From a candidate division FCPU426 bacterium (GTDB taxonomy: Bacteria > Oederibacteriota > Muellerivitia > Muellerivitales > Muellerivitaceae), in the NCBI GenBank assembly GCA_963719085.1, contig CAVRAL010000004.1, positions 256,001-320,000 on the forward strand: a DNA stretch of 64,000 nt. Direction: 5' to 3'. Positions 1 through 17,899 of this stretch are shown here, piece after piece; position 1 is the stretch's first letter; each line of letters starts with the position of its first letter. The position numbers were made by a program, and so were the translations under genes. Under the pieces are notes generated by a model. The model was given only the letters and a program-made list of their open reading frames with translations, made no database searches and had not been told where the DNA came from.

Positions 1-750
1 TAAAGAAAGCGCCGAAGTAGAATCACCTAATCTAATTGCTTGTTCAGATACCGACACGCTCAACTTATCCGGAAGCTCAGAAAACCAATTATCATAAAAT
101 ATCTTTTGCATCGATGTTTCTTGCAAGTTATTTTTAATGCAGTTAAAAGCCATCGTCTTCTGTTTTAATTCCCATTGACGTTCTATAAATAATTTAGACT
201 TATTCTTTTTCCACCAAACAACTTTCAAATCTTTTGAATATACGAGAAAACAATTTTCCTTAGTTGCATCAATAAACCTGAGAGCCGTGGCAGTAAACGA
301 AGTATCAAAAACACTGGACAACTTTTTGATAGATGCAATTCCCGGTTCTAAAGAACGACATATGGGAAAAAATAGATTTCTTGGCATAAGTACTTCGGCA
401 GCAAAAATATTCGCTTCCGTTTCAATCGAATCTTCTTCATTAACCGCCATCATATCTTTGTCATTGCAGATACTTGAAAATTTACTATCACGGTGCATTT
501 TCCAATGACCAAGTTCATGGGCTACGGCGAAACGTTTTCTTCGAGGATCATCATTGGCGTTTATAGTAACAATTCCATTTTCGCCATTTTGAACTAACCT
601 AGCATCAGCACCTCTAATAACTCCTTCTCGAACAATCAATCCTTGGTCCATTGCGATGTCTTCGATTCTTATATCTTCTGGCGTTTCAAATGAATACCGA
701 TCAATAAACTTAGATGCTTCAATATGAGCCCGAGTTATATCAGCCTTCAT
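1..750 (-). CDS. ImmA/IrrE (CapP-like) Zn metallopeptidase, 3' end runs off the window
   Basis: Not in the ORF track; translated by hand from ATG at 750: MKADITRAHIEASKFIDRY...DPRRKRFAVAHELGHWKMH...ETEANIFAAEVLMP. This gives HExxH plus the ExEANxFA motif. Open to base 1; overlaps the stop of the 740..1192 gene. Confidence 0.9.
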   Translation of the reverse strand, partial: MKADITRAHIEASKFIDRYSFETPEDIRIEDIAMDQGLIVREGVIRGADARLVQNGENGIVTINANDDPRRKRFAVAHELGHWKMHRDSKFSSICNDKDMMAVNEEDSIETEANIFAAEVLMPRNLFFPICRSLEPGIASIKKLSSVFDTSFTATALRFIDATKENCFLVYSKDLKVVWWKKNKSKLFIERQWELKQKTMAFNCIKNNLQETSMQKIFYDNWFSELPDKLSVSVSEQAIRLGDSTSALSL

Positions 751-1192
751 TGCTTCGCATCTTTCTTTGATGAATTTCTTCTAATAGCTTTAAATCTTTA
801 AGAAGAGTAATCAAATCTTCATCGGCAAGATTTTCAAAATTTCTATAGTGCGCAGTTAGTAATTGGCGTCTGTCAGGCGAAATCGTCGAAACAAAATCGA
901 TAAGCGCTTGTTTTACATTTGAAATATTTATTTCCAGATTCGATTCATTAGAAATAAACGTACTTTCGATTTCTTTTCTTTTGGCTTTTGCGGAATCCAA
1001 TTTTATTCTCGTGCAAATAACGTCGAATTGCCTACGCGCAATTTCCAAACGCGAATCAATATTAAAACCGTCTTCAACAAGCTCTTTACGAACTTCTTTA
1101 ATTGGCATCGATATTATTTCTTCAGGTTTTAGTTGAACAAAATCAAAAATGGATTGAAGCGTTTCTGTGTAATTTCTTTTTGTGTCGCTCAT
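740..1192 (-). CDS. Hypothetical helical protein (150 aa), candidate anti-sigma or peptidase substrate
   Basis: Tightly packed between the sigma-like gene (3-bp gap) and the peptidase (overlap). GGAGAGGTG RBS upstream. Function inferred from context only. Confidence 0.7.
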   Translation of the reverse strand: MSDTKRNYTETLQSIFDFVQLKPEEIISMPIKEVRKELVEDGFNIDSRLEIARRQFDVICTRIKLDSAKAKRKEIESTFISNESNLEINISNVKQALIDFVSTISPDRRQLLTAHYRNFENLADEDLITLLKDLKLLEEIHQRKMRSNEG

Positions 1193-1195
1193 GTT

Positions 1196-1822
1196 TCACC
1201 TCTCCGTTTCATTGGCTATAACGTTCAAATAATTTTCATCAATGATTTTCTGAAGTCGGCGATCAATCTGCTTTTTAAAGGCGGCGATTTGCTTATCACT
1301 TTTGCTCATTTGGTTAGCAATTTCAGCCGGTTTCAAATCATCTAAATATAATTCCAAAAACTTTATTAAATCGGCGTCATTTTCAATCACGACAAATAGT
1401 TTTGTCAGAATATCGCCACTAATTTTTTCAATTTCTTGTCGTTGGGTGTCAGTTAGCGGATTTGAAGAAATCTGTTCGAATACGTCTTCAACCTTTGAAT
1501 GAACTTCGCCTTCTTCATCATAAAAAGGTTTTTTAATATGGTTGTTATCTTCGTCTACCTGCAAGTTCCAAACTTCGCTTTTGACCATTTTGAATAAGAC
1601 TGGCAATAAATCAGGATACTTTTCTTGATTCCAATTTCTATCTCCACTACTAACTTTTGCAAAAACGCGAACAACTATATCCTCGCCCTCTTCCCCGTTA
1701 GCGGGTATTCCACCGTACTTCCCTTGCCAAAACCTACGTCTAAGTAAACCGTTGGCATACTTGGATAGCCTGAGATACCAATCCTCGAAATTCGTTTGAA
1801 TTAGATCCATTGGATTAGGCAT
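1196..1822 (-). CDS. ECF/sigma70-like factor
   Basis: Region-2-like EEGEDIVVRVFAKV...LFKMVKSEVWN and C-terminal region-4 HTH-like LYLDDLKPAEIANQMSKSDKQIAAFKKQIDRRL. Confidence 0.7.
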   Translation of the reverse strand: MPNPMDLIQTNFEDWYLRLSKYANGLLRRRFWQGKYGGIPANGEEGEDIVVRVFAKVSSGDRNWNQEKYPDLLPVLFKMVKSEVWNLQVDEDNNHIKKPFYDEEGEVHSKVEDVFEQISSNPLTDTQRQEIEKISGDILTKLFVVIENDADLIKFLELYLDDLKPAEIANQMSKSDKQIAAFKKQIDRRLQKIIDENYLNVIANETER

Positions 1823-1874
1823 TTTTGGCCAAAGTTCCCGTTGATTTGTTCATCCCATCATCCTCTCACACTAC

Positions 1875-1959
1875 CTATATGCTAATTATTCGAACATTAT
1901 GCCGAAATAATCATTCGATTTATTTTCGGCATGTTTGGAAATTTCTTAGCAGTATATAG
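1875..1959. promoter_or_regulatory. Extended imperfect inverted repeat in the divergent promoter region
   Basis: Left arm CTATATGCTAA..TCGAACAT.ATGCCGAAATAATC; right arm GATTTATTTTCGGCATGTTTGG..TTAGCAGTATATAG. Confidence 0.6.
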
Positions 1960-2228
1960 ATAAGGGGATAAATCCCCAAAAATGGCTAAAACGATTAAAA
2001 GGAATCGCCAGTTTGAGCGAAAACATCTGAGTCGATACTGTATCGACGAATCGAACATCTCAACAAGAATATCGGCTTAAAACCTATATTTAGACTTTAT
2101 ATGTTCCCCTCCGATGACTTTCATTCTAACTTACCCGCCGCCCCTAGGCGGTTAATCATTCGGTTCCTAGATTGTTACGCCCACTCCGTGAAAACGTAGT
2201 GAAATTTCAGTTAATGGAGGTTTTGATT

Positions 2229-2342
2229 ATGAAAGTTGGAAATATTATTTTATTTGCCCTTGGAGTATTTCTTTTTGGTGCGCTTACCGGCGGAGCCTTT
2301 GTTCTCAAAACTATGCAACCTAAACAAAATCTGCTGAATTAA
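2229..2342 (+). CDS. Small single-TM membrane peptide (37 aa)
   Basis: GGAGG RBS at 2216-2220; MKVGNIILFALGVFLFGALTGGAFVLKTMQPKQNLLN; its stop overlaps the RBS of the next gene. Confidence 0.6.
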   Translation: MKVGNIILFALGVFLFGALTGGAFVLKTMQPKQNLLN

Positions 2343-2352
2343 GGATATAAAA

Positions 2353-2787
2353 ATGGGATTTTTCGAATACGATTCAGATGATATCGCCCAAACAATTGAA
2401 CAATGGCAGGCCACAGGAACAACAGAAGAAGAATGCGAAGAATCACTGGGTAAATACCTAAACCAAAAATTTGAAAAACCAGTTTTTCACAGACAGTTCA
2501 CAATTGGAAAATCAAGAGCGGACATATACGTCCGATTCCCCGGTGGTGCCTCTGTCGCAATTGAACTAAAAAGCAATTTAACAGAACGGACAGAGTTTCA
2601 ACGTTTGATCGGTCAAATGTATGAATACTTAAATGTCAGCGATGTGGAACTAGTAGTTGTACTGTGCGGGGATGGCAATCCCGCTCTCGAAAAGATGGTT
2701 CGAGACGCAGTTGCTTTTTTTAACGAACATCACGAAAAGAAAGTTCGTTACGTTAAAAAGGGCGTCACCGCCTTATCAGTTAATTAA
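2353..2787 (+). CDS. PD-(D/E)XK nuclease-like protein
   Basis: RADIYV...AIELK motif followed by GQMYEY (QxxxY). Confidence 0.65.
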   Translation: MGFFEYDSDDIAQTIEQWQATGTTEEECEESLGKYLNQKFEKPVFHRQFTIGKSRADIYVRFPGGASVAIELKSNLTERTEFQRLIGQMYEYLNVSDVELVVVLCGDGNPALEKMVRDAVAFFNEHHEKKVRYVKKGVTALSVN

Positions 2788-2794
2788 TCCCGGG

Positions 2795-2823
2795 GAGCAA
2801 AACTTTGAATAAAAGTTTTGCTC
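2795..2823. terminator. Hairpin, possible terminator or operator
   Basis: GAGCAAAACTTT-GAATA-AAAGTTTTGCTC, 12-bp stem followed by TTCTT. Confidence 0.5.
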
Positions 2824-2896
2824 TTCTTACTCACCAAAAAATCAACTTATCTAAAAATGATTTATTGATTATTTAAAAAATAAGCGAGGTTATAAA

Positions 2897-4063
2897 ATGG
2901 ATTTTTCTAGAATTGGGCGCGGAGTAATTTATTGGCCTGTTGGTAGCGGTGACTCTTCCACAATCATCGTTGACGAAAACACTATCATACAAGTGGATAT
3001 TAACAAGCGAGCTGACTCAGAAGAAGAAAATACCCTTTATACAAATATTGTTGAAAAGCTTAGAACTTCATTGCGAAAAAAGGATGCAAAGCCCTATCTC
3101 GATGTGTTCGTATTAACTCATCCAGACCAAGATCATTGTAAAGGATTCGAAGAACTTCTTAAAAATGTGACCATAGGAGAGTTATGGTTCACACCGCGAG
3201 TTTTCAAAGAATTCAAAACCGATTTATGCGATGACGCAAAAGCGTTTCACACAGAAGCAGAACGTCGAATCAAAAAAATCATCCAAGAAAATGGCAACGT
3301 CACTTCAGGTAACCGCGTTAAATTATTTGGTTATGACGAGATAATTGGTAAAGGTGGTGATTACGAAGGTTTTCCAAAAGAGCTTTTGATCATACCTGGA
3401 ACATCTTTTAACTCGGTCGATGGGGTTTATCGAACTGAAGTTGACTTTTTTGCGCATAGCCCATTCAAAGATGATATGGACGGAGAACGAAATCACACCA
3501 GCCTTTCATTTCAAACCGTACTTAAAAAAGCCAATAAAGAACTAAAATTACTTCACTTCGGCGATTTGGCACACTTGCAATTAAAAAAGATTTTTGAAAA
3601 AACGAGCGATTCAGACAATCTTGGGTGGCACGTTTTGCTTGCTCCCCACCATTGTTCAAAATCAGCTATGTATCACTCCGAAGACGCGGATAGCGAAGAA
3701 ACTCTTCAAGCCGATTTCATTACCGGAATAACTAGCACCAAAGAGAAAGTTGCTTATATTGTTTCAAGTAGTGAAATTATCCCAGCAGACAATGACAAAG
3801 GCGATAATCCACCTCATGCCAAAGCGAAAAATCGTTATGTAGAAGTTGTAAACGAAAATTTCTTTTGCACTCATGAACACCCTGATGAAAAAAATCCAGA
3901 GCCAATAATCTTCAGATTGAACGATGACGGGAACATCGTTCCACCACAGCCGACAAAAAAAGAAAAAAAGGACCAAGGAAAATCTTTGGGAGCGAGTATC
4001 TTGACCGCCAGAGGGACAACTAATCAACCTCCCAAAAACCCAAGGCAATTTGGTCATGCTTGA
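2897..4063 (+). CDS. Metallo-beta-lactamase-fold (ComEC/Rec2-like) hydrolase with a flexible C-tail ending ...RQFGHA
   Basis: VGSGDS, THPDQDH (HxDxDH), NHTS, FGD and PHHCS motifs of ComEC-type MBL domains. Confidence 0.85.
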   Translation: MDFSRIGRGVIYWPVGSGDSSTIIVDENTIIQVDINKRADSEEENTLYTNIVEKLRTSLRKKDAKPYLDVFVLTHPDQDHCKGFEELLKNVTIGELWFTPRVFKEFKTDLCDDAKAFHTEAERRIKKIIQENGNVTSGNRVKLFGYDEIIGKGGDYEGFPKELLIIPGTSFNSVDGVYRTEVDFFAHSPFKDDMDGERNHTSLSFQTVLKKANKELKLLHFGDLAHLQLKKIFEKTSDSDNLGWHVLLAPHHCSKSAMYHSEDADSEETLQADFITGITSTKEKVAYIVSSSEIIPADNDKGDNPPHAKAKNRYVEVVNENFFCTHEHPDEKNPEPIIFRLNDDGNIVPPQPTKKEKKDQGKSLGASILTARGTTNQPPKNPRQFGHA

Positions 4064-6266
4064 AAAACAACAGACAGCAGTTCAAGAACTAAGAGATATA
4101 GAATCAACATCTAATAATGGCATTGAGCTAGTAACATCGCCGCATTTCGATGTATCGACACAAACAACAGTTATGGAAATCTCTATCGATTGTTCAAGCT
4201 TTGAGATGCGCGGCAATAATCATTTGTCACTTTCTCAACGTGAACGAGTAGTGATATTTTTAGACAAGAATTATCCCTTTTCCATACCGATTGTTGCAGT
4301 TTTTCATAATAGATTCATTACTTCCGCACACGTTCAGTGGATGCGGGAATTTGAAAAATATAAGGCTGTACTACCCACAATTTGCCTATATCAATCACCA
4401 TCCAATGATTGGGAGCCAAGTGAAGGGATGTTTGGGCTTATGGATAGATTAGTAAAATGGTTTGCTCGCGGTGCCGTGGCAGAGCTTGATCTTCCCGGAG
4501 ACCCGATTCATGCTCCCCTTGCCTATTACAGTCAATCCAATCCTATTCGTATAGTTCTGAGCAAAAACGCTCCAACGGTTGGTAGAGAAAGTTGGATTGG
4601 ATATTTTAAATATAAACGCATTAAAGAAAACATTTACGAAGTCGTTGATTTCATTCAAGACACTGATATTGATGACAGTTGTGGCTTAGGTTGTGCTTTT
4701 TTATTACCTCACGAAACATTTTTTGAATTCCCCAATCAATTAGACCATTTAATAAAGCTCATAACAAACCACGGAAACATTAATCAATCCACGATTGCTT
4801 CTAATATGGCAAAAGTCCAAAATCGCATTGGAAAAAATTTTCCTTTATTTGTTATGGTAGGCTCACCGATGCGAGGAATTGCGGGCGAAGCAGAAAGAAA
4901 ACTGCATCTAGCCATCGGTGATATAAGTGCACAGGCCATAACAGACAAAACTGACTTAAACAGTATTAATTGGTGCAAATCTTACGAAAACCGTGAAGAA
5001 ATAATTATCAAAAGAGATAACTACTCAAATATCACTTCATTAAGAGATAAAAATATTTTACTTATCGGGGTTGGAGGTCTGGGAGGATATGCTGCCGAAT
5101 CAATCGTTCGTAGTGGAGCTAAAAAAATAACGGTAGTAGATTTCGGCGAAGTGCATCCAGGACTGTTATCAAGACAAAATTACACTCACGAAGATATTGG
5201 AAAACCAAAAGTCGAAGCAATCCGCGATAGAATTACCAAAGTAAATCCAAACTGCGAAGTAACAATTATCAATAACGATTTTCTGACGGTTGCCGATTCC
5301 ATTAAATTTGAAGATTTTGATTTCATCATTAATCTAAGCGCCTCAAATCCAATTAATCTATATTTTGAACAACTTTCGAAAACTAAAAGATTTCCAACTG
5401 TTGCAGTGGGACTTATAAGTGCCGATGCCAAAGTTTTGCTTGGAACAATATCCGACAAAACTTATATCGGCGGTCAAAAGCAATTACTTCGTAACTTTCA
5501 TATTCGAATGCTTTCTGATAGAGAATTAGAAGAAGTTACCAAGAAAATATGGCCTGAACCAGGCAATGAAAATAACTTTCAGCCAGAACCCGGTTGCTCT
5601 GAACCGACTTTTACCGGTTCTGCAACCGACATGCAATTCCTTTCGTCGTTTTTCATTAATCAAATTTCAGAATACTTCGGACAACAAAACACCACATCGG
5701 GCCGCTTATTTGGCATACATCAACCAACCAACGGAATTACAAAGACATGGAGTTTTTTCCCCGAATGTTATCAACAATTCGATATATCCGACAACGATGC
5801 TAAAGTTAGAATTTCATCAAAATCATTAGCACAATTAAAAAGCCATGTCGCAAAAGCACAAAAGTTACGTGGTTCATCTTGTGAAACAGGCGGCTTAATG
5901 TACGGAAGAGTTGAAAATGCTATCGATTTAATTTGGGTTGACGAATGTACCGATGCGCCAAGTAATAGTGAATTTTCCGCAAGTGGTTTTCATTGCGGGA
6001 CAAATGGAGTCGAAGAATTATCAAAAAAAATATCTAAAGCCACTAATGGAGAGAGTTGTTTCATTGGATATTGGCATACACATCCTAACGGGCCAACAAA
6101 GCCCAGTTTTACAGATTTACTTGCGGCATTTGAAACAGTTTCGACTTCCGGAGAAAATCTAAGACAAGTATTATTCATGATTATTAATCCGGACAATTTT
6201 TCATTTGATTTTTATTTCTTCGATCACGTTAACGGTCAATTAAGGATAGTCATTGTCAGAGAATAA
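4056..6266 (+). CDS. E2-E1(ThiF)-JAB fusion (Cap2/Cap3-like ubiquitin-like conjugation and deconjugation protein)
   Basis: N-terminal E2-like YPFSIP...AHVQ...TICLY. E1: LLIGVGGLGG...DFGEVHPGLLSRQ and EPGCSEPTF. JAB: ETGG...GYWHTHP...PSFTD. ATG at 4056 overlaps the MBL stop. Confidence 0.88.
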   Translation: MLEKQQTAVQELRDIESTSNNGIELVTSPHFDVSTQTTVMEISIDCSSFEMRGNNHLSLSQRERVVIFLDKNYPFSIPIVAVFHNRFITSAHVQWMREFEKYKAVLPTICLYQSPSNDWEPSEGMFGLMDRLVKWFARGAVAELDLPGDPIHAPLAYYSQSNPIRIVLSKNAPTVGRESWIGYFKYKRIKENIYEVVDFIQDTDIDDSCGLGCAFLLPHETFFEFPNQLDHLIKLITNHGNINQSTIASNMAKVQNRIGKNFPLFVMVGSPMRGIAGEAERKLHLAIGDISAQAITDKTDLNSINWCKSYENREEIIIKRDNYSNITSLRDKNILLIGVGGLGGYAAESIVRSGAKKITVVDFGEVHPGLLSRQNYTHEDIGKPKVEAIRDRITKVNPNCEVTIINNDFLTVADSIKFEDFDFIINLSASNPINLYFEQLSKTKRFPTVAVGLISADAKVLLGTISDKTYIGGQKQLLRNFHIRMLSDRELEEVTKKIWPEPGNENNFQPEPGCSEPTFTGSATDMQFLSSFFINQISEYFGQQNTTSGRLFGIHQPTNGITKTWSFFPECYQQFDISDNDAKVRISSKSLAQLKSHVAKAQKLRGSSCETGGLMYGRVENAIDLIWVDECTDAPSNSEFSASGFHCGTNGVEELSKKISKATNGESCFIGYWHTHPNGPTKPSFTDLLAAFETVSTSGENLRQVLFMIINPDNFSFDFYFFDHVNGQLRIVIVRE

Positions 6267-7365
6267 AAGAATCGGACTATGTCTTTCCGGTGGCGGCTTT
6301 CGAGCGGTTGCTTTTCATTTGGGGTGCCTCCAAGGCCTTAATAACCTTGGATTGCTTAAACACATTCGATCAATATCCTGTGTTTCTGGCGGCTCAATCA
6401 TAGGCACGCTCTACACTCTGTACGGTCAAACAGACTTTTCAGAATTTGAAAAAAGAACCAAAAGAATGTTACAAACTAGGCTTGATCTTAAAATTGCCTA
6501 TAAACATATTTCTTCAGGGCGATTCTTATTCGATCTTTGTCAGTTGGGCACGTGTCTTCCAATACGATTTATTTCTCAAAAACTAAACTTCAATTTTGAA
6601 TTTCAAAGAAAATATAGTCTGACCGAATCACTCGTTAAGATATTTGATAAAGAATTTGATAAAAAACTTCTATCAAATCTTCAAAACTCTCCCATTGAAC
6701 TTATTATTAACGGGATTGAATTAAGAACATTTAGTGCAATTCGTTTCGGAGCTAAAAAAGCTGTTTGTTGGAGATTCGGCGAGATCGACCCTTCTCTAAT
6801 TTCGTTGGGAGAAGCCGTTGCTGTTAGTGCGGCTTATCCCCTGCTTTTACCTGCCTTAGAGCGAAAATACAGTTTTTCAAAAAAGGGAATAACCTACAAG
6901 GAAACTGTTTCTTTATCTGATGGCGGAACATATGACAATCTTGGACTCACACCATTTATAAGCACAAATGACTTCGCAGATAGTTATCCCCGACCCGAAT
7001 TAGACTACATTATTGCATGCGACGCCGCTCACGGACAGCTTCATCCACAAACATTGCCACACACACCCATTTCAAGATTACACGCCGCATTCAAATCGTT
7101 GATGAGTCGTTCTAGGCACTCTAACTTTAAAACTCTTCATAAGCTTAAAGAAGATGGTGACATAAAAGGTTTTTCATTAGCTTATTTAGGTCAACAAGAT
7201 GAAAGAATCCCAATTCCACCTATCGATTTAGTTCAGAAAAATCGTGTGGACTCATATCCAACAGATTTTAAAAAAATGAGTGACGACAATTTTGAAGTTC
7301 TAACTAAACGCGGCAGACAACTCACCGAATCTTTAACTACGCACTATTTACCAGAATTATTTTGA
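6253..7365 (+). CDS. Patatin-like phospholipase
   Basis: LSGGGFRA oxyanion motif, CVSGGS nucleophile, DGG motif. Overlaps the upstream gene; AAGGA RBS. Confidence 0.88.
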   Translation: MSENKRIGLCLSGGGFRAVAFHLGCLQGLNNLGLLKHIRSISCVSGGSIIGTLYTLYGQTDFSEFEKRTKRMLQTRLDLKIAYKHISSGRFLFDLCQLGTCLPIRFISQKLNFNFEFQRKYSLTESLVKIFDKEFDKKLLSNLQNSPIELIINGIELRTFSAIRFGAKKAVCWRFGEIDPSLISLGEAVAVSAAYPLLLPALERKYSFSKKGITYKETVSLSDGGTYDNLGLTPFISTNDFADSYPRPELDYIIACDAAHGQLHPQTLPHTPISRLHAAFKSLMSRSRHSNFKTLHKLKEDGDIKGFSLAYLGQQDERIPIPPIDLVQKNRVDSYPTDFKKMSDDNFEVLTKRGRQLTESLTTHYLPELF

Positions 7366-7379: not shown

Positions 7380-10300
7380 TTATCTTTTATTCTCATTTAA
7401 TGGTGGCAAGCCATTAACAATCTTCATGGTTTCGAGACTAACCGTCACAATGCGCTTTACCAAGTTAAGAATATATTGGGGATCATCGGACCAGTCGTTA
7501 GGATCATTGGTTATCTGGCTGTCTGATTCTATTGAGACTTGATATCGTTCCATAATCCATTCCAGTGCCGGACGACCATTAACTACATAATCATAAGCCC
7601 TCAGCGGAATGTCTTTTAGCGTAATGTGACTGTTATACACAATTGTTGTTTTATCCACTTGTCCATCGAGCTTGCCAAATATCATCTTACGAACCTTATA
7701 AAATTCTTTTGAATTAAGGTCAAACTGATCTTTGCTTACTTCTAGGGGATAGGGGTCAATATCTTCATAGTGGAGATGCCATTTTGCTAAATCTCTGCCA
7801 GCTTTACTGAAAATCCAAAAATCCTGAGCAAAAGGAATTCTAGGAATCATCTTACCGAGATCTGAAGAGAACCGAGTTTTGTATTCAAAAGAATGAAGAA
7901 TGCCATAAACATAATAAAAAATATCTTCTTCCCCAATCTTTTTGTCCGAATATTTCTCCCTAAATAACTTTACCGAAATGTCAGAAATCGCTTTCGATAT
8001 TCCATTCTCTTCATGAAATTGAAACCCCAAATTTTCGGAATTTTCCAGTGATTCAGATTTTTTATTGTATCTCAGCGGAAAACATTGTCCTTTCGAGATC
8101 ATTTCAAGATCAGGCAAAGCGTTAGAAATTAAAGCTGAAAACTCTTTAGTCGCACCTCGCCCCGTTACACAGATCACAAGGTTTTCAGTATTTATATCAG
8201 GAAAATATTTCGGCATTTGATAAACAGTGTTATTAAAACTTCTATTGAAATAAATCCATTGTTTGCAAAATGGTCTATAAAGACTTTTTACGATCGATTC
8301 TTTTTGAAATTTATGTACAATTCCTTTTTCAACGTCCCACTTGAGTTCTCTTGTCCAACTAATTTTTTTCGGATCATTTTCCACAAATCCTTCAATAGAA
8401 ATGTTTTTGCTTTTTGTGGCCGTTTTATAGTCTTCTGTTTGTTCGTTGTAAAATCGAATCATTCGCTTAACGTTAGCGATCAATTCATTTTTATTAAAAT
8501 TATAAACCCACGCATCTCGATTAGTTTTCACTCCCATGGAGTAACTATTAAAAATCGAAATGTTTTTCTCGTCGTCTTTATCACCTAAAGGAATAAATTT
8601 TTCAAAAGTTGGGTCGCGGTGATTTATCCAATCATGACTCGAATTTGGGACAATCTTAGTCCAAGGAATTGCTTTCGAGCTTTCAAACTCGTTAATGATT
8701 TTCAGTTTTTGTTCGCGAGTTAAGTAATCACCAATATCGTGATAAAAAAGTTGGCAAGTTCCCTTTTTTTCAGGATTCTTTATAAGCAAAGTAATTGCTA
8801 TCGAAGTTCGCGTCCCTTCACCAAAGACACTTCCCTTTTCTTTACGTCTCTGCTCACCAGAAGTACGAGCATTCCCTCGAAGGTTAAAACAATAAATAGA
8901 TGTAAAATCGTCCGTTAGACACTTACGGAATCCATCCATAGCATTCCCATCAATAAAAGAACCATTACTGACATAACAGATAACACCCTTTTCACCAATA
9001 CGGTCACCAGCCCAACGAAAAGCTCGAATGTAGGAATCGTAAAGACTATTTTTGAGAGTGGCCGTAGAAAAAGCAGCGTAAGTTTGTCGAATTTTTTCAT
9101 CTAAGCTTGGATATTTTAAATTTTTGTTCCCATCATTTTCGCTCGCTTGTAAAGCTGAGTAAGGTGGATTTCCAACAATAACTCGAATATCTTTTTTCTT
9201 TTGACGCGTAACACGTTCGTTATTTTCAGGAAAATACTTTTCATCCCAAGGACTCTTCGGTTCCGACATTTGAAATGTATCAGTCAGAACAATCCCATCA
9301 AAAGGTTCATACTTTCCACCAGCAAGCCCGTGATAAGCCTCTTCAACATTGATCGCCGCAATGTAATAGGCCAAAAGGACAATTTCATTAGCATGTAGTT
9401 CTTCTTTAAATTTGCGTTTAAGGTCTTCGGGTTTAATCAAACCATTTTGAAGAAGACGAACTATGAAAGTTCCGGTGCCAGTAAACGGATCAAGAATGTT
9501 TACCCCTTTATCAGTGAGCCCAACACCAAATTCTTGCTTTAAAGCCTCGTCCGCGCTTTTGACAATAAAATCAACTACTTCAACTGGTGTATAGACAATT
9601 CCCAAGCGTTCAGCCATCCGAGGGAAAGCAGACCTAAAAAACTTGTCGTATAGCTCCACAATAATCCGCTGTCTACCTTTTGCGTTATCAACACCACTCG
9701 CTCTCTCTTTGACACTTTCATAAAACTTTTCCAATTTTGCAGTTTCCTTCTCTAAACTTGCACCTTCCAAAAGATCAAGCATCTTCTGCATAGCTATAGA
9801 AACGGGGTTTTGTTGGGTAAATTTATAGTTTTCAAAAAGAGCGTCAAAGACTGGTTTAGTAATTAGATGTTGAGAAAGCATTTCAACAGCTTCCTCTTTA
9901 TCAATACTTGGATTGAGATTGTCTTGAAGGCCTTTTAAGAATTCATCAAAAGCGGCTTTATGCTTAGGTTTCGCACCCTTTAACAAACCCTCAATGCGAG
10001 TTTTGTGTCTTTCGGCTATTTCAGCCACATCTTTAGCCCAGCTCTCCCAATAGCGACGGTCACCGCATTTAAGAACAATTTTGGCATAGATGGCATTTCG
10101 CCATTCTTCTATATCTGGAAACTTGAATGCGCTTTGCCCGTATGGGGCCTGCGTTTCATGCGCGCCTGAAGTTTGACCCTCCTCTGCCTTATCACTACCG
10201 CCTACCCCTATTACTTGAATCTGGTCAGGACGGGATTTGTTTAATTCGATTTGATTAACTGTGGCGTTAAAACGGTCGTCATGAGCGCGAAGGGCCTGCA

Positions 10301-12164
10301 AAACCTGCCAAACAACTTTATATTTTTTATTATCTTTTAACGCTTCTTCTGGCGGTGTGTTGGCAGGAACACCTATCGGAAGAATGATGTAACCATACTT
10401 TTTACCTTCGGCTTTTCTCATAACCCGTCCGACAGATTGGACTACGTCCACAACCGAATTACGGGGATTGAGAAACATAACTGCATCAAGAGCTGGAACA
10501 TCTACCCCTTCGGCCAGACAACGAGCATTACTAAGAATACGACAAACATCACCTTCCGAAGCTGTATCAGCTTTAAGCCAATCGAGTCTTTCATTGCGTT
10601 TCAGAGCATTAAAAGTGCCGTCAACGTGCTCAACCTGACAGGCTAGGAAATTGTCATCGTCTTCATGCTGTTTACGATATTGGTCAACAATATCGCCAAA
10701 GAGATTTGTAATTCTTTGAGAATCTTTAATTGATCGACAAAAAGCAACTGCCCGATGCATGTGACCAAGGTCATTGGCGATACCATCTATTTCAGAACCT
10801 TTAACAAAACGCTTACTCAAACCATTCCAGCAACCGGTTATCTTTACGGCATCTTCAAGATTAAGTTCGCTATTACTATCAGCCAACATTTTTTGCAAAG
10901 AATTATTAACGTAACTCTCATCAACAGCCAGAACCATGACTTTGTAATCCGAAAGCAAGTCTTTACGAACAGCTTCAGAAAAATCCAAACGATAAAACTC
11001 TTTCCCATAAAGCGATTCGTCATCCATTGAACAGATTTCCGCATTTGCCTCTTCGGCCTTGGTTCTTGATTCATCACTGTAAATACGCGGAGTGGCCGTC
11101 ATATAAAGGCGTTTACCGCCTTTTATGAATTTCGGATCGTGAACTTTAACGAAATGGGATTCATCATCCCCTTCCAAAGTTACGCCTGTCGTTCTATGCG
11201 CTTCGTCGCAAATAATTAGATCAAAATCAGGCGCGCCTAACTTTTGGGCCTCTGAAATAACTTTAATAGATTGGTAGGTACTGAAAATAACCGTTAATTG
11301 CTTTTTACCGCCAAAAGCTTTTAATTGTGCCGCAAGTTTCTTTGCGTTAGTTGTTGCTGGTAATGGAAGATCGTGAGCTTGTATATCTTCACTCTCATTT
11401 TTCCTACCCACCTTAACATCTGAGCAAACCGCAAAATTATGAAGGGAAGCTTCTGCTTCCGCAGTCCACTCTCTTAGCGTTTGAGAAACAAGTGAGATTG
11501 AAGGCGCCAAAAAAAGAATAAATCCTTTCTCTCCCGCCATCTTTTCAGCGATTTTAAGAGAAGTGAAAGTTTTGCCCGTTCCACAAGCCATGATTAGTTT
11601 GCCGCGATCAGCTTTTTTAAATCCTTCAAGTGCATTGGAAAGAGCTTCTTTTTGATGATCTCTAAGTCTCTTTTTCTCTTTTAGTTTTATATTTTGAGGG
11701 CGGCTAAGGCTGAATTGGTTCCAATCAATCGGACTGTTAGCGAGGTCTTGAACCCTTAAGCGGGTAACCGGTGTCCGTTGGTTTTCCAAAGCTTCTTCAG
11801 CATGATTACTCCACTTGTCAGTAGTGGAAACGATCATTCGAGTGGTAAACGGCTCTTTACCTGAAGTAGTAAAAAATGAATCTATATCAGCTTTTTGGAG
11901 ATTGTAGTTAGGGTCATAAAATTTGCACTGAATGGCGCAAAATTCACCCGTATAGCGATCTTTAGCTACAAGGTCGATGCCAGTATCAGGCTTCTTTCCA
12001 CGGCCAGGCCATTCCGACCAAAGCCAAACGTCACTAAATTGATCTTTGTATATTGGGTCAGTGACAAGATAGTTGGCAATTAAACGTTCAAACTTATCAC
12101 CCAAGTCACGATTAGAGGTTGCCGCTTGTCTGAATTCTTCCAGCAACGTATGTATTGTTGTCAT
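7380..12164 (-). CDS. Type ISP restriction-modification enzyme (Mrr-like nuclease, SF2 helicase, N6-adenine MTase, TRD)
   Basis: DTGIDLVA..AIQCK nuclease; MACGTGKT and DEAH helicase; DPFTGTG and GNPPY MTase; 1594 aa, LlaGI/LlaBIII-like architecture. Confidence 0.93.
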   Translation of the reverse strand: MTTIHTLLEEFRQAATSNRDLGDKFERLIANYLVTDPIYKDQFSDVWLWSEWPGRGKKPDTGIDLVAKDRYTGEFCAIQCKFYDPNYNLQKADIDSFFTTSGKEPFTTRMIVSTTDKWSNHAEEALENQRTPVTRLRVQDLANSPIDWNQFSLSRPQNIKLKEKKRLRDHQKEALSNALEGFKKADRGKLIMACGTGKTFTSLKIAEKMAGEKGFILFLAPSISLVSQTLREWTAEAEASLHNFAVCSDVKVGRKNESEDIQAHDLPLPATTNAKKLAAQLKAFGGKKQLTVIFSTYQSIKVISEAQKLGAPDFDLIICDEAHRTTGVTLEGDDESHFVKVHDPKFIKGGKRLYMTATPRIYSDESRTKAEEANAEICSMDDESLYGKEFYRLDFSEAVRKDLLSDYKVMVLAVDESYVNNSLQKMLADSNSELNLEDAVKITGCWNGLSKRFVKGSEIDGIANDLGHMHRAVAFCRSIKDSQRITNLFGDIVDQYRKQHEDDDNFLACQVEHVDGTFNALKRNERLDWLKADTASEGDVCRILSNARCLAEGVDVPALDAVMFLNPRNSVVDVVQSVGRVMRKAEGKKYGYIILPIGVPANTPPEEALKDNKKYKVVWQVLQALRAHDDRFNATVNQIELNKSRPDQIQVIGVGGSDKAEEGQTSGAHETQAPYGQSAFKFPDIEEWRNAIYAKIVLKCGDRRYWESWAKDVAEIAERHKTRIEGLLKGAKPKHKAAFDEFLKGLQDNLNPSIDKEEAVEMLSQHLITKPVFDALFENYKFTQQNPVSIAMQKMLDLLEGASLEKETAKLEKFYESVKERASGVDNAKGRQRIIVELYDKFFRSAFPRMAERLGIVYTPVEVVDFIVKSADEALKQEFGVGLTDKGVNILDPFTGTGTFIVRLLQNGLIKPEDLKRKFKEELHANEIVLLAYYIAAINVEEAYHGLAGGKYEPFDGIVLTDTFQMSEPKSPWDEKYFPENNERVTRQKKKDIRVIVGNPPYSALQASENDGNKNLKYPSLDEKIRQTYAAFSTATLKNSLYDSYIRAFRWAGDRIGEKGVICYVSNGSFIDGNAMDGFRKCLTDDFTSIYCFNLRGNARTSGEQRRKEKGSVFGEGTRTSIAITLLIKNPEKKGTCQLFYHDIGDYLTREQKLKIINEFESSKAIPWTKIVPNSSHDWINHRDPTFEKFIPLGDKDDEKNISIFNSYSMGVKTNRDAWVYNFNKNELIANVKRMIRFYNEQTEDYKTATKSKNISIEGFVENDPKKISWTRELKWDVEKGIVHKFQKESIVKSLYRPFCKQWIYFNRSFNNTVYQMPKYFPDINTENLVICVTGRGATKEFSALISNALPDLEMISKGQCFPLRYNKKSESLENSENLGFQFHEENGISKAISDISVKLFREKYSDKKIGEEDIFYYVYGILHSFEYKTRFSSDLGKMIPRIPFAQDFWIFSKAGRDLAKWHLHYEDIDPYPLEVSKDQFDLNSKEFYKVRKMIFGKLDGQVDKTTIVYNSHITLKDIPLRAYDYVVNGRPALEWIMERYQVSIESDSQITNDPNDWSDDPQYILNLVKRIVTVSLETMKIVNGLPPLNENKR

Positions 12165-12290
12165 AGCCCCAACTTATTCAAAATTAATACAAATGATCTT
12201 GTTTAATATGGTCTCTCTCGAAAAACCCGTCTGATTCTACGCTTCCACGCCAAAGTTTTCTCAACTTTATTTGGATGGCTCAAACAGCTG

Positions 12291-14003
12291 TTATTTTTCG
12301 TTCCCCTTCAAAAACTCCCCATCCCATAACCTGTTTTGATCTATTTCCTTCTGATCCGCGAGATGTTCTTTTATGAAATTTTGAACCCGAGGAATACCTG
12401 CCGAATCGAGCAACGCCCGTTTAAGCCATTCAGTAAATGCTTCTTTTGAGCCTTCTCGTAAATAAACATTTCCAATTTCAAGGAAAATTCGAATTTCAAG
12501 AATCTGCGGCAAATTGACACTTGATACTCGATATCTACTCTTCAAATAACTTTCAAAAACAGAAACTATGTCCGCAATATTCCACGGGAATTTTTGTTTG
12601 GTAATAACATAATATGCAATAGTTTCAATTGAACATTTATCAAATAACGCCACATGCTTTTCAGCAACTTTTTCCCATTCGGGACGTTTTAATTCCGTTT
12701 TGATAACTCGATTATATAAGACATATTCCACAAGCATTCTTCGCCGATTATCTTCGTCCACCTGGCCGAATTGTTGTTCAAAGACTTTAAATAATTCATC
12801 CAGAGAAGTCAGGCCGTTTTTATCACCTATCAAAGCACTTTGAAATTCTTGAAAAAATCCGGTTAAATATTCACCGCATCTTTGAGATGTAAACCCCGCA
12901 TGATTTCCAATCCAATACTCAGGAGCCAATCTCATTTTGAACATTCCCGGTAAATCGGAATACCAGTCATACTGTTCTTTTTCAAGATGTTCCCCACGGG
13001 CAATAAATTGTTCAATAACATGGTTCGCCAATCGAAACATGCCCCTATACGATAAATAAGGTGAGTTCTCCCAAACAAACGCATCGGCACGGGCAATCAC
13101 AGGTACTTTCAATTGATCGAGAATCGGTTTGAGAACATGAGCAAATTCTGAGCGGAATTTATAAGCTTCTGAAAGCGCCTTACGAAGTTCGCTTTTTCGA
13201 ATAGGTCTTTGAATGTCGGTTATTTCTTGAATAAAGTAATCATCCGTAACATGAGAAAGAATAAATTCGACAAATTGAAATTGCGATTTAACGTGTGCTG
13301 ATTCCAATAAAACTTTTCTAATTTCCTGTATCTTTTCAATGCTTAATTCAACTTCTACAGTTTCAAGTTTTCTTTTTACATCTTCGTGGTAATCATCCCA
13401 AGTTGCAGTAAAACCGCTATGTCCTATGGACAGGGATTCCAATGCAAAAACAAGAAGTGTGTAAGCCAGATCAATGTTGTAGTTCAGAACAACCAAAGAA
13501 TTTTCAATTGTCTCAAGACATCGAATAACAGCTTTATACTTCGCGCGCGGCAAACCTATTACCTTTTTAACGAACTTCTCAAAATCATCTACAGTTTTAG
13601 GACTACCAAGTACTTGTTTACTACAATAACCAGACACAAAAGCCGCAGGAACGTAAACATCTCCTTTAGTTATCTGCTCTCTTCGGCACTGGTAAATAAT
13701 GTCTTGTTCGTTTTTGGCAAAAAAAGATTTAAAACCAAACATAGCCAAAAGCCTAAACTGGACCCTTATTTCTTCATCATCGGCTAAAACCACCACACCA
13801 GCTTTCTGCGGCGCTTTCTCCAGTTGATTAACAAAATTAAAAACATAAGAATTAACTAACGAATATCGATCAACCCCATCAAGGTCACCGACACATGTCT
13901 TTATTGCACCTATCCAAGCAAAGTTTGAGTAATAGATGGCTTTTTCATTACTTGTATTTCGTTCTTCGGAATTAAAAAACTTCCCAGAAATTATCTGTAA
14001 CAA
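12291..14003 (-). CDS. HEPN-motif protein (ApeA-like), putative defence RNase
   Basis: 570 aa. LVFALESL followed later by AYKFRSEFAH (Rx4H) at 13137-13154. TTG start with GAGG RBS. Confidence 0.6.
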   Translation of the reverse strand: MLQIISGKFFNSEERNTSNEKAIYYSNFAWIGAIKTCVGDLDGVDRYSLVNSYVFNFVNQLEKAPQKAGVVVLADDEEIRVQFRLLAMFGFKSFFAKNEQDIIYQCRREQITKGDVYVPAAFVSGYCSKQVLGSPKTVDDFEKFVKKVIGLPRAKYKAVIRCLETIENSLVVLNYNIDLAYTLLVFALESLSIGHSGFTATWDDYHEDVKRKLETVEVELSIEKIQEIRKVLLESAHVKSQFQFVEFILSHVTDDYFIQEITDIQRPIRKSELRKALSEAYKFRSEFAHVLKPILDQLKVPVIARADAFVWENSPYLSYRGMFRLANHVIEQFIARGEHLEKEQYDWYSDLPGMFKMRLAPEYWIGNHAGFTSQRCGEYLTGFFQEFQSALIGDKNGLTSLDELFKVFEQQFGQVDEDNRRRMLVEYVLYNRVIKTELKRPEWEKVAEKHVALFDKCSIETIAYYVITKQKFPWNIADIVSVFESYLKSRYRVSSVNLPQILEIRIFLEIGNVYLREGSKEAFTEWLKRALLDSAGIPRVQNFIKEHLADQKEIDQNRLWDGEFLKGNEK

Positions 14004-14097
14004 AATTACGCCTCTTTATCCGCTGTTCTTCCATAACACATCGCTTTAATCATATCTCTGAATAACGATCTGTATCACCACAAACCGCTTTTCAGAT

Positions 14098-14568
14098 TCA
14101 ATTGTCTAAAGACCCTTCGTGTTCGGTGTATTCCTCCGTCGTCCATTTATGCCCGCAAAGCGGGTCTTTACATTCCCAAAAGTGGCAGATCGTTTCATTA
14201 ACCATTTTGACCTGCTCCAATCGACTGACTTCATACCCCTGATTTGGGGTAAAAATTTCATTGGAATAGAGAACCCCATGGTCAATCCGCTCCACCGTTT
14301 CGAGATTTTCCCATTGTTCGATAACCTCGCCTTTAACGAATTGCCTTTTCCAGAACCGCTTGCACTGAGGACATCGGCTTTGGAATGCTTTCACCAAGCA
14401 CCAAACCGCCGGCTTTAAGGTGATGCAGTACAGCGGATAAAAAACAAACCAGAAGGCCTTTAGGACAAAACAGACCGCGCCTAAAGCCATCATCAGAAGA
14501 AACACGGCCAATACCACGGCGAGCCCAAATAAAAACAGATAAGCCAAAAAGCTAAATAAGGTATGCAT
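14098..14568 (-). CDS. Membrane-anchored Zn-ribbon hypothetical protein
   Basis: Hydrophobic N-terminus; CPQC and CKDPLC cysteine pairs; AAAGGGGG RBS. Confidence 0.6.
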   Translation of the reverse strand: MHTLFSFLAYLFLFGLAVVLAVFLLMMALGAVCFVLKAFWFVFYPLYCITLKPAVWCLVKAFQSRCPQCKRFWKRQFVKGEVIEQWENLETVERIDHGVLYSNEIFTPNQGYEVSRLEQVKMVNETICHFWECKDPLCGHKWTTEEYTEHEGSLDN

Positions 14569-14590
14569 AGTTCCCCCTTTGCCGGGCTAA

Positions 14591-14717
14591 TAACATGCTG
14601 AAAAAATCCCCCGAACGGATTTTTTCAGCCGACAACATCTACGGTAACCCCACGATTCCTGCTGAATCTTTGGGGTGACAGGCTGCTTTGTAGCTCTATT
14701 ACTTTTTTAGCAACCTG
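14591..14717. mobile_element. MITE-like IS remnant
   Basis: Imperfect terminal repeats TAACATGCTGAAAAAAT / CAGGTTGCTAAAAAAGT. CTAA on both flanks (14587-90, 14718-21). Internal perfect 13-bp palindrome at 14597-14629. Confidence 0.4.
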
Positions 14718-15194
14718 CTAAAGCAGCCCGGCTTGTCTAAAAGAAAAGTGACCTTCATGAGTAACGATTAAATGGTCATGAACCGCTATGCCCAAAGCCC
14801 TTGAGGCGGTCACGATCTGACGGGTTAACTGCTTATCGCCTTCACTGGGTTCCAAGCTTCCGGCGGGGTGGTTGTGGGAAAATATCAGCCCCGTGGCGTT
14901 TAATTCCAAAGCCAATTTCAAAATCTCTCTGGGATAAACCGCCGTATGGTCTACCGTGCCTTCGGTATTCAAAACCACATCCAAAACATGATTACGATGG
15001 TCTAGGTACATGGTCAAAAAAGCTTCCTTGGCCCTGCCGCCAATGTACTTACGGAAATATTCGGCGGCGTTTTGGGGCTCGCTAACGACGGGGCCTCTTT
15101 TGTAATCCATTCGTGCTTCGGCCCATGAGGTAACGGGAATGGTCGGCGGGGGAAGGGCATCCACACTCAATTTCAGTTCAAGTTGCTTTTTCAT
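14718..15194 (-). CDS. radC: RadC-family JAB domain protein (mobile-element type)
   Basis: EAFLTMYLD...GTVDHTAVYPREI...HNHPAGSLEPSEGD...DHLIV. GGAGG RBS at 15202-15206 supports ATG 15194. Confidence 0.9.
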   Translation of the reverse strand: MKKQLELKLSVDALPPPTIPVTSWAEARMDYKRGPVVSEPQNAAEYFRKYIGGRAKEAFLTMYLDHRNHVLDVVLNTEGTVDHTAVYPREILKLALELNATGLIFSHNHPAGSLEPSEGDKQLTRQIVTASRALGIAVHDHLIVTHEGHFSFRQAGLL

Positions 15195-15881
15195 ATAACG
15201 GCCTCCTTTTTTCATCTGGTTTTTCTGAAGGTTTTTTGCCTTTGAAAAACCGCCTTCCGCCTCCCCCCTTGCCCAAAAGAGGGGGGAGGAAGAAGGCCAT
15301 AGAGGAGGTTTGAGCGTTCGCGCTGACAGGACCAAAAACGAATGGGATACCAAACGAAGGGAGGCCATCCCTTAACTTTTGTGACAGCCGCCCTTTGGCT
15401 GGCGCAAAAGTTGCCTTGCAAGGGTGGCCGTGAAGGGATAAACAGGGTCTAGGGGCAGGGCGAACGATCAAAACTTTCCATCGTTCTAAGCCCTAAAACG
15501 GATGACCATCTACGGGGTTTGACTTGAGTTGGGCTTAATACAGCTGTGGGGACATCTACTTGGTGGTTAATGACTGATCACCTTAACCACTGATACTTTG
15601 AACTTCTCTTGAACCGACTTAAAACGACTGACTATTCACAAGCTTCACAATCTAAGATTCCTTCATCTTTAACTTCTCTTATACCTAATCACCTTCTTTC
15701 CTCAGGCTTATCAATTCGGCTTTCTTCACCTCCCAGTTCTTTTTCTTCTCTTCTTCATCCTTCCACTTCCCCGCTAATTGCCCAGCCTACCTCTTACCTC
15801 ACCACCCACTACTTCTTTACCCATCCCCCATATCCTTCTCTATGCCTTTGTGTTCCATGATTCTTCTCATCTCGTCTTTGA

Positions 15882-15970
15882 GGGTTTTTCCATGCGGAGA
15901 GGGCGACCCCCCCTATCGACTTTCTTGATGCATAGATAGGGGGGGTCGCCATCGGAGTGTGGAAAAACCC
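15882..15970. repeat. Nested palindrome (16-bp perfect inner IR, 11-bp outer IR)
   Basis: GGCGACCCCCCCTATC 15902-17 pairs with GATAGGGGGGGTCGCC 15935-50; GGGTTTTTCCA 15882-92 pairs with TGGAAAAACCC 15960-70. Confidence 0.8.
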
Positions 15971-16162
15971 GCCTTAAAAAGCCAAAAACGCCAAAATCAT
16001 AGTTCCATGGCACGGAACTACTTGTGGCACAACTTGGTTCGGTATGAGGGGGATGGGAAACATGGTTTGAGGTGTTTTGCGAAGGCGCTTCGATGCTATT
16101 TTCGACATTGCTTCCCCGGACTTATCGGGTTCTGGGTATCAACATCTTCGGAGGACAAACAA

Positions 16163-16450: not shown

Positions 16451-16484
16451 CCTGGGATATTCAAAAATAAGGAGTGTTTAACTA

Positions 16485-17663: not shown

Positions 17664-17689
17664 GGAAACCCGATAAAGAGACAAGCCTT

Positions 17690-17899
17690 TCATTGGAGCT
17701 TTCTTCTTTCCCTTGCATGAAGCTTCGCATGTTCACTTCTGCTCATATTGACGAGATTGCTTTCTCTGAAGTTTTTTGGATTCCCATCTATATGATGCGT
17801 GACTTGACCTTTTTTGGGTTGGGCTACAGTTCTATGAACCAATTTTCCGCTATCATTCCAGACAGGATAACCTTTTGGATTGTAATGAAACCTTCCCAT
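17690..17899 (-). CDS. Small HNH endonuclease-domain protein
   Basis: VHR...THHIDGNPKNFRESNL...EHAKLH; AAGGAG RBS. Confidence 0.8.
   Translation of the reverse strand: MGRFHYNPKGYPVWNDSGKLVHRTVAQPKKGQVTHHIDGNPKNFRESNLVNMSRSEHAKLHARERRKLQ

Follow-up and report, generated by a model that had tools for sequence, protein, structure and literature searches.

We analyzed a 64,000-nucleotide stretch of DNA from a candidate division FCPU426 bacterium (contig CAVRAL010000004.1, positions 256,001 to 320,000; here called the window), near the start of which three overlapping genes encode a metallo-β-lactamase (MBL)-fold protein, a fusion of E2, E1, and JAB domains, and a patatin-like lipase. This operon is a divergent member of the known 6A-MBL anti-phage family, a cyclase-less sister of type II CBASS (an antiphage signaling system based on cyclic oligonucleotides). 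The MBL protein matched the NCBIfam model NF058524, "anti-phage 6A-MBL system MBL-fold protein," with 302.4 bits against a cutoff of 220 and over positions 1 to 346 of 346. The best match of the E2-E1-JAB protein was to NF058523, "6A-MBL_cap2_3," at 282.3 bits, with the cutoff of 320 not reached. Because nine relatives taken from the related loci described below score 322 to 413 bits with the same model, we consider the window protein to be a divergent outlier of the same family; it is approximately 30% identical to its nearest database relatives. The window shares with 6A-MBL an MBL gene directly 5' of a triple-domain E2-E1-JAB gene, a full complement of catalytic residues, and a defense island setting. 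It differs in having a third, translationally coupled patatin gene, whereas the 2006 description has two genes and NCBIfam two models, and in the strong divergence of its E2-E1-JAB protein. We estimate a probability of roughly 0.55 that the best explanation, a three-gene 6A-MBL operon with MBL conjugation, a patatin effector, and CapP-type control, is correct.

The name 6A-MBL comes from row 6a in Table 1 of Iyer, Burroughs and Aravind 2006 (PMC1779556), in which the 6a operon has two genes and the word "patatin" is absent. According to the available part of a 2026 review (PMC13276650), prediction of the system was followed by experimental confirmation in Pseudomonas aeruginosa, for which the review cites van den Berg et al. 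2024; the available part of a 2025 preprint (10.1101/2025.09.30.679545), citing the same study, lists it among the known jumbo-phage defenses. An earlier interpretation of this DNA from its letters (the sequence-only reading) had described a CBASS-like, cyclase-free conjugation operon in a defense setting, in which the MBL protein holds the position of the cyclase in type II CBASS, and had proposed that the system was uncharacterized. The description is borne out, including the position of the MBL. The claim of novelty is refuted for the core, and only for the core, which is the named 6A-MBL system (NF058524 and NF058523; Iyer et al. 2006; van den Berg et al. 2024 as cited). The three-component form is best described as a variant of 6A-MBL, the core of which is already known and named. 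In the literature searched (supplements and van den Berg et al. 2024 were outside the search), we found no description of a patatin with the 6a operon, E2-E1-JAB, or the MBL operon, and no described mechanism for 6A-MBL. Relative to that literature and to the two NCBIfam models, the three-component patatin form, a motif in the MBL tail, and a swappable third module are new.

The coordinates of the three genes (Table 1) are identical to those given in the sequence-only reading. The database copy of the middle protein (P0008) has 736 amino acids (aa), compared with 738 for the open reading frame (ORF), and for this reason the true start is probably the ATG at 4056. This ATG overlaps the MBL stop codon at 4061 to 4063, the two genes sharing 8 nucleotides, and the TTG start of the patatin gene at 6253, which has AAGGA six bases 5' of it, overlaps the E2-E1-JAB stop codon at 6264 to 6266. 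Given the overlap of start and stop codons at both junctions, the three genes are translationally coupled, and on the basis of this layout they are one operon. A consensus scan upstream of the MBL gene found no sigma-70 promoter on the + strand, and its count of promoter-like sites was below that of shuffled sequence (7 against a mean of 14.6), a result that is uninformative about the promoter.

The middle gene encodes the E2, E1/ThiF, and JAB fusion, with the motifs that the sequence-only reading had named. Pfam identified Prok-E2_A at residues 14 to 159 (7.5e-15), ThiF at 328 to 462 (7.5e-24), and Prok-JAB at 604 to 713 (3.8e-09), PADLOC returned E1-E2 (7.1e-66) and JAB (9.8e-21), and the first match of the protein's profile in the PDB was Cap2 (7to3; 4.7e-22). 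In 30 homologues, the E2 cysteine C112 (within ICLYQ), the E1 residues G340, G342, and G345 (GVGGLGG) and C516 (EPGCS), and the JAB residues E612, H676, H678, S686, and D689 were all invariant, as were R375, Q376, K387, and D424 in the E1 region. A cyclase was sought with PADLOC, which gave no match to a CD-NTase (cGAS/DncV-like nucleotidyltransferase) or Pycsar cyclase for the 7 proteins of positions 1 to 7365 at an E value of ≤0.01 or for the 46 further window ORFs of at least 110 aa at ≤1e-8. Family searches found no ubiquitin-like family among proteins P0004 to P0007, with shorter ORFs lying outside the search. Within these bounds the earlier statements that the region has no visible cyclase and no visible beta-grasp ubiquitin-like gene stand.

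The MBL protein retains a complete metal site. In a 30-sequence alignment, the motif H75-x-D77-x-D79-H80 and residues D19, D34, H187, D223, H251, H252, and H307 were invariant, although the Pfam model Lactamase_B_2 scored only 0.0044, below its cutoff, and a PDB sequence search with the MBL profile gave nothing significant. The AlphaFold2 model (mean predicted local distance difference test [pLDDT] score, 87.3) matched MBL-fold structures in Foldseek, with the beta-lactamase-like domain of ComEC first (9ic4; E value, 2.2e-12; template modeling score on the target, 0.72), the pneumococcal phosphorylcholine esterase Pce second (approximately 1e-10), and RNase J, PhnP, CPSF-73, and others lower. 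The weak PADLOC matches of the protein were to MBL proteins of other defense systems, namely RTasMBL (4.7e-9), PDC-M48B, and LmuA. Our best guess from the modeled fold is that the protein may be a phosphodiesterase, with nucleic acid or a phosphodiester headgroup as its substrate.

The C terminus of the MBL protein looks, from its sequence pattern, like a ubiquitin-like, JAB-processed, E1-activated tail. The window protein ends in ...ARGTTNQPPKNPRQFG-HA, with a two-residue extension, H-A, after FG386, and the AlphaFold2 pLDDT falls to 46 to 62 after residue 350. Within the tail, A371, R372, and G373 are nearly invariant and P379 and G386 are invariant in the 30-sequence alignment. The tails of MBLs from related loci follow a common pattern of A-R-G, four residues, P-P, a few residues, (V/T)-G/x-(F/Y)-G, and 0 to 5 unconserved residues. 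Among 71 MBLs (the window and 70 loci), [FY]G lies within 5 residues of the C terminus in 70, and the full motif A[RQ]x..P..[FY]G is present in 65. The number of residues that follow [FY]G is 0 in 9 proteins, 1 in 5, 2 in 31, 3 in 15, and 4 in 10; the single miss has 6. The same tendency is seen in the wider MBL family (236 clusters at an E value of ≤1e-30), in which [FYHW][GA] followed by 0 to 5 residues ends 69 of 81 near-full-length representatives and is exactly terminal in 37; shuffling the tails of the same 81 representatives gave 7.2 on average and 14 at most.

These observations parallel what is known of type II CBASS. In the available part of the Ledvina preprint (10.1101/2022.03.31.486616), the cyclases of type II CBASS have a disordered, conserved C terminus that is adenylated by Cap2, and cGAS-GFP fusions at the cGAS C terminus, including ones with mutations in that C terminus, served as substrates in cleavage assays of Cap3. 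A preprint from the Corbett laboratory (PMC11601596), which also cites van den Berg et al. 2024 for 6A-MBL, states, in its available part, that "MBL pathways" conjugate their enzyme in the manner of type II CBASS. From the tail motif, its disorder, the intact catalytic residues, and the likeness to Cap2 and Cap3, we infer JAB trimming, adenylation of G386, thioester transfer, and conjugation. No MBL fused to E2-E1-JAB was found among proteins of 1,293 to 3,690 aa related to the middle protein, which is weak evidence; that the MBL is never seen fused even though its gene abuts the E2-E1-JAB gene fits a need for a free MBL C terminus. An ORF of 1,622 aa in locus L060 that might have been such a fusion looks like a frameshift or ORF-calling artifact, with other pieces of the MBL in other frames. 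Beyond the MBL core, that ORF contains low-complexity Arg/Gly/Ala-rich sequence without the tail motif.

The third gene encodes an intact patatin, as the sequence-only reading had supposed. Its product matched Pfam Patatin (PF01734) with an E value of 6.6e-17 and carries G13-G-G-F-R17, the nucleophile elbow C43-V-S45-G-G, in which Cys replaces the first Gly, and D223-G-G. In an alignment of 21 sequences, G13-G14-G15-x-R17, S45, and D223-G-G were invariant. The protein aligns with the last 390 residues of a fused E2-E1-JAB-patatin protein at 36% identity (E value, 8e-76), and its AlphaFold2 model (pLDDT, 87.6) matched PlpD, plant patatin, and the CBASS lipase effectors CapE (1.3e-10) and AbCapV (9.8e-9) about equally in Foldseek. 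Two further residues, H22 and C25, in the helix that follows the oxyanion loop (A-F-H-L-G-C), are invariant in 21 of 21 patatins; residues 22 to 25 correspond to window positions 6316 to 6327, and other bacterial patatins generally carry Val at the position of C25.

The variability of the third gene among related loci is the main reason for reading the patatin as an effector. A scan of genome contigs from one genome per species, in which the genome of the window itself was not among the matches, gave 266 related loci, of which the best 80 were kept, so that the fraction with a patatin may favor the nearest relatives of the window; their gene content was determined by phmmer with the window proteins. 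The MBL gene is immediately 5' of E2-E1-JAB in 75 of the 80 loci. The sequence-only reading had named beforehand, as a possible refutation, that the patatin might not be conserved beside homologous pairs of MBL and E2-E1-JAB genes. The outcome favors the reading: a patatin was present in 73 of the 80 loci, either fused to the C terminus of E2-E1-JAB or directly downstream. A tree of E2-E1-JAB proteins was built from the window and 77 loci, with three loci excluded that covered fewer than 600 query residues. In this set 34 cases have a fused patatin, 34, including the window, have it directly downstream, 2 have it at a greater distance, and 8 lack it. The state changed between fused and separate at least 8 times on this tree, with 3 to 4 changes forced by well-supported branches. 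Likewise, 50 of the 119 database homologues listed for E2-E1-JAB have at least 1,000 aa, and those listed with approximately 1,130 to 1,180 aa carry a Pfam Patatin domain. Plasmid copies of the system, on Rhodococcus pDK1 (L081) and Rhizobium leguminosarum pRLa11 (L082), also have a patatin.

Where the patatin is lacking, its slot is occupied in several loci by small proteins with hydrophobic segments or, in one locus, by a metallophosphoesterase domain fused in its place (Table 1). The slot thus behaves as an effector slot would, as the sequence-only reading had proposed for the patatin. The pattern suggests an enzyme and a conjugation machine that stay the same and a third module that varies and is mostly membrane directed, according to the logic of CBASS effectors. 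By record labels the loci span at least 15 phyla, with some near-identical copies in different phyla. In particular, L002, L024, L026, L005, and L007 have nearly identical E2-E1-JAB-patatin genes (branches of 0.05 to 0.2) that are labeled Acidobacteriota, Chloroflexota, and Actinomycetota; near-identical genes under different phylum labels indicate recent horizontal transfer or binning errors.

Upstream and divergent from the operon lies a group of three genes on the - strand encoding a CapP-like metallopeptidase, a 150-aa protein (P0006) in the capH position, and a sigma-like factor (Table 1). As in known CapH+CapP regulators, a CapP-like protease and a small overlapping upstream gene are divergent from the immune operon, with a sigma-like gene alongside; in contrast to them, the small protein of the window has no helix-turn-helix (HTH) and shows a weak likeness to CapH only in its C-terminal ~33 residues. 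No HTH family was detected in the 150-aa protein by Pfam or NCBIfam. Only its last ~33 to 50 residues resemble the CapH C terminus (PADLOC capH, 5.7e-4), hhalign against 5 CapH-like proteins gave an E value of 0.0012 and a probability of 19%, and the best score in an Atlas search was 0.89, with no family. The sigma-like protein scored 3.7e-4 with the NCBIfam sigma70-ECF model, below the cutoff, and 0.96 to 0.98 in Atlas to clusters, some of which have Sigma70_r2 (68% of members) or Sigma70_r4_2 (96%).

A CapP-like gene was present in six related loci, five of which have a canonical XRE-type HTH CapH just 5' of it, divergent from the MBL gene. The regulator set of the window (740 to 1822, - strand) is unusual in having a sigma-like gene and an HTH-less 150-aa protein where relatives have a plain HTH CapH. 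These data suggest, without proving, that the 150-aa protein pairs with the sigma factor and can be cleaved by CapP, which makes it a candidate CapP substrate or anti-sigma factor, and the region at 740 to 1822 may be a sigma/anti-sigma/protease switch. The sequence-only reading had counted a sigma/IrrE module as part of a novel system. This does not hold, as the module is a CapP-type regulator, and Lau et al. 2022 (10.1101/2022.04.27.489752) already noted, in the available text, a sigma-70-family factor beside capH/capP in 24 CBASS systems.

Downstream of the operon, a Type ISP restriction-modification enzyme, RadC, an integrase, and a SocA/Panacea gene all lie within 13 kb, and housekeeping genes (sulP, rpoD, dnaG, and mutS2) begin at approximately 21 kb. 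The host is an uncultured lineage, and the relatives of the RpoD protein include one from candidate division FCPU426 at approximately 54% identity. Given its neighbors, the operon lies in a defense island on an integrated element. Outside the island, PADLOC matched a Csa3-like 110-aa protein at 23000 to 23332 (1e-14), a mad2-like methyltransferase at 60335 to 61528 (1.9e-21), and a fragment of a DndA/SspA-like cysteine desulfurase at 63359 to 64000 (1.3e-19) that is likely housekeeping. Before the MBL gene, an ORF for a 37-aa hydrophobic peptide (2230 to 2343, + strand) directly precedes the gene of the 144-aa protein P0004 (2353 to 2787, + strand), which has weak matches to the sce7726 family (8.4e-7) and PHROG 984. 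A perfect 12-bp inverted repeat (hairpin) at 2795 to 2823 separates this gene from the MBL gene. P0004 was rejected as a component of the system, having a homologue in 0 of the 80 loci and being set apart by the hairpin. As neither gene of the pair was found in related loci, the two are probably a separate small unit.

Table 1. Features of the three-gene operon, its surroundings, and variant third modules in related loci (positions are those of the window unless a locus is named)
Feature	Position	Strand	Evidence or remark
MBL-fold metallo-phosphoesterase gene, 6A-MBL type, 388 aa	2897..4063	+	ORF list; NCBIfam NF058524
MBL C-terminal tail, A371-R-G373 ... P-P ... F385-G386 plus H-A	4007..4060	+	Proposed site of JAB processing and E1 activation
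E2-E1-JAB (Cap2-Cap3 fusion) gene, ORF of 738 aa	4050..6266 (start taken as 4056)	+	Pfam, PADLOC
E2-E1-JAB domains, numbered from TTG 4050	E2 residues ~14-159; E1 ~328-520; JAB ~578-725		E2, C112; E1, C516; JAB, E612, H676, H678, S686, D689
Patatin-like lipase gene, 370 aa	6253..7365	+	Pfam; proposed membrane effector
CapP-like IrrE/M78 metallopeptidase, 250 aa seen	1..750 (runs off window start)	-	PADLOC capP, 2.6e-54, positions 5-238/242; Pfam Peptidase_M78, 6.2e-16
150-aa protein (P0006) in capH position, overlapping capP start	740..1192	-	No Pfam/NCBIfam family
Sigma-70/extracytoplasmic function (ECF)-like factor, first gene of divergent regulator operon	1196..1822	-	NCBIfam, Atlas
Island: Type ISP restriction-modification enzyme (1594 aa), ORFs of 570 and 156 aa, RadC	7380-20141		The two ORFs have no Pfam/PADLOC family
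Tyrosine integrase	16485-17663		
SocA/Panacea-domain gene	19596-20141		
Patatin-less locus	L063		Contig edge cuts locus
Patatin-less loci with small proteins in slot (162, 230, 266 aa)	Two Vibrio contigs, L012, L039		3-4 hydrophobic segments; no Pfam family
Genes of these small proteins, following E2-E1-JAB	L009:4047-4535, L012:10326-11018, L039:8917-9717		Candidate membrane effectors
1158-aa E2-E1-JAB with calcineurin-like metallophosphoesterase domain	L052:2315-5791		Fused in patatin's place
Second, different MBL-superfamily gene, then distant patatin, after E2-E1-JAB	L013:5253-7247, L034:10616-12419		Dehalococcoidia; patatin E ~5e-19 to that of window
Patatin ORF on pDK1	L081:6366-7547		Missing from distributed gene table
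Patatin on pRLa11, split into two ORFs	L082:6201-7416		

The window shares with type II CBASS a Cap2-like E2-E1, a Cap3-like JAB, a patatin-fold lipase, a CapP-type upstream gene, and a substrate enzyme with a disordered tail that ends in a conserved Gly. It differs from type II CBASS in that a CD-NTase was not found in the window and an MBL hydrolase is in its place, that Cap2 and Cap3 are fused in one protein, that the patatin has no CapV model match, and that no nucleotide signal is known or predicted. In half of the relatives the patatin and the conjugating enzyme are one fused protein, an arrangement that speaks against a signal of a purely diffusible kind.

We therefore propose a mechanism in which the JAB domain would trim the short H-A extension of the MBL and the E1 domain would adenylate G386, after which C516 would take over the acyl group and hand it on to C112, the cysteine of E2. 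The MBL would thereby be joined through its C terminus to a target, which would prime or position it, and the JAB domain would also reverse the conjugation. The patatin, through Ser45 and Asp223, would be a membrane-attacking effector that degrades phospholipids and stops the infected cell. It would work in physical association with E2-E1-JAB, to which roughly half of the relatives have it fused and to which translational coupling ties it in the window, and it would in some way be switched on by conjugation or catalysis of the MBL. Expression would be controlled by the divergent upstream operon, in which the CapP-type protease, activated by single-stranded DNA in relatives, would act on the 150-aa protein with the sigma-like factor alongside.

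Several points weigh against this proposal. The window E2-E1-JAB scores 282 bits, below the NCBIfam curated 320, and its branch in the tree, the placement of which is unsure, is very long at 2.4 substitutions per column. The anti-phage activity of 6A-MBL is known only through citations of van den Berg 2024, and the tested system may or may not have had a third gene. The patatin had no PADLOC or NCBIfam match at an E value of ≤0.01 and hence is not a recognized CapV-type effector, and the absence of an invariant lysine from the alignment of 21 patatins gives no support for the patatin as a defined conjugation target. The regulatory step is the least secure, because the 150-aa protein at the place of capH has no HTH. 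Finally, the nearest folds of the MBL, the ComEC nuclease domain and then a phosphorylcholine esterase, would be no less fitting for an effector than for a sensor.

The last point leads to the main rival, which we consider less probable than the proposed mechanism but well ahead of the other alternatives. The MBL itself may be the effector, in the form of a ComEC-like nuclease or phosphodiesterase that conjugation of its C terminus, for example onto phage structures, as for Bil, would direct or activate, with the patatin as an accessory effector or membrane anchor. The order of the Foldseek matches, with ComEC at the top and RNase J, CPSF-73, and PhnP lower, favors this explanation, as do the weak PADLOC matches to MBLs of other defense systems and the fact that the MBL is the constant gene of the loci with an invariant metal site. 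Moreover, the original 6a operon has two genes (Iyer et al. 2006), and hence the MBL must suffice there. However, the nuclease activity is a prediction from the fold, and the second-best structural matches are to phosphorylcholine esterases, not nucleases. In addition, the third slot is filled in nearly every locus examined, always by something effector-like, which mirrors the sensor and variable effector of CBASS.

An improbable alternative is that the operon carries out lipid conjugation in the manner of ATG8. The JAB domain would expose the aromatic-Gly end of the MBL, E2-E1 would link the MBL to a membrane lipid, and the tethered patatin, or elsewhere a multi-transmembrane protein, would supply, remodel, or release the anchor. 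If this were true, the defense would be a phosphodiesterase planted on the membrane. The tail of the MBL, with (F/Y)G and a short removable extension, has the pattern of ATG8/LC3/GABARAP precursors. The third gene is membrane directed (lipase or multi-transmembrane) in almost all loci, and half of the family has the lipase and the conjugating enzyme in one covalent fusion. ATG4, the processing enzyme of the ATG system, is a Cys protease, whereas processing in the window system would fall to a JAB metalloprotease. The window substrate also differs from ATG8 in being a 388-aa enzyme with a flexible tail rather than a beta-grasp ubiquitin-like protein, and a lipid acceptor is speculative. According to the available part of the Ledvina preprint (10.1101/2022.03.31.486616), the ATG7 E1 is closer to the bacterial 6a and 6b/Cap2 E1s than to other eukaryotic E1s, and the E2 of Cap2 resembles ATG3 and ATG10, of which ATG3 transfers ATG8 to phospholipid; the catalytic Cys of E1 on the crossover loop and a noncanonical E2 are further shared features in the same source. 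Nevertheless, the case is one of analogy alone, and no lipid adduct is known for bacterial Cap2-type enzymes. The fusion partner in L052 is a metallophosphoesterase that is not obviously lipid directed, and aromatic-Gly ends may merely reflect a preference of the E1 and JAB pockets.

It is quite unlikely that the patatin serves in deconjugation as an esterase or thioesterase, the alternative raised in the sequence-only reading, in which it would be a further negative regulator that hydrolyzes MBL~Cys thioesters or oxyester conjugates. Patatin-fold proteins are Ser-Asp acyl hydrolases, the dyad is invariant, and the patatin is fused beside the JAB domain in half of the relatives. However, the system already has a JAB peptidase for deconjugation, the active site of which is intact, the multi-transmembrane proteins and the phosphoesterase that replace the patatin in other loci would be unable to do such work, and both E1 and E2 keep their cysteines, with no result pointing to oxyester conjugates. 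Least likely of all is that the operon serves here not in phage defense but as a stress-response or mobile-element maintenance module on an integrative island, as the integrase in the island, homologues on plasmids (one conjugative), the general response of CapP-type regulators to DNA damage (Lau 2022, in the available text), and the blurred line between immune and stress pathways described in the CapK/CapS paper might suggest, since the family is annotated and cited as anti-phage, the neighbors are restriction and toxin-antitoxin-type genes, and no MBL homologue was found in the 50,697 phage records searched.

For the proposed three-gene mechanism, the tail motif names G386 of the MBL as the conserved residue of processing and activation. 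The third, swappable, membrane-directed component is absent from the curated two-gene definition, and annotation pipelines therefore under-call the system. The frequent fusion of a lipase to the conjugating enzyme, as read from the gene arrangements, suggests that conjugation, and not a second messenger, exerts direct control. If this is true, the coupling of ubiquitin-like chemistry to cell killing in 6A-MBL would be unlike that in CBASS, and it would bear on the nature of the acceptors to which Cap2-type enzymes join their substrates.

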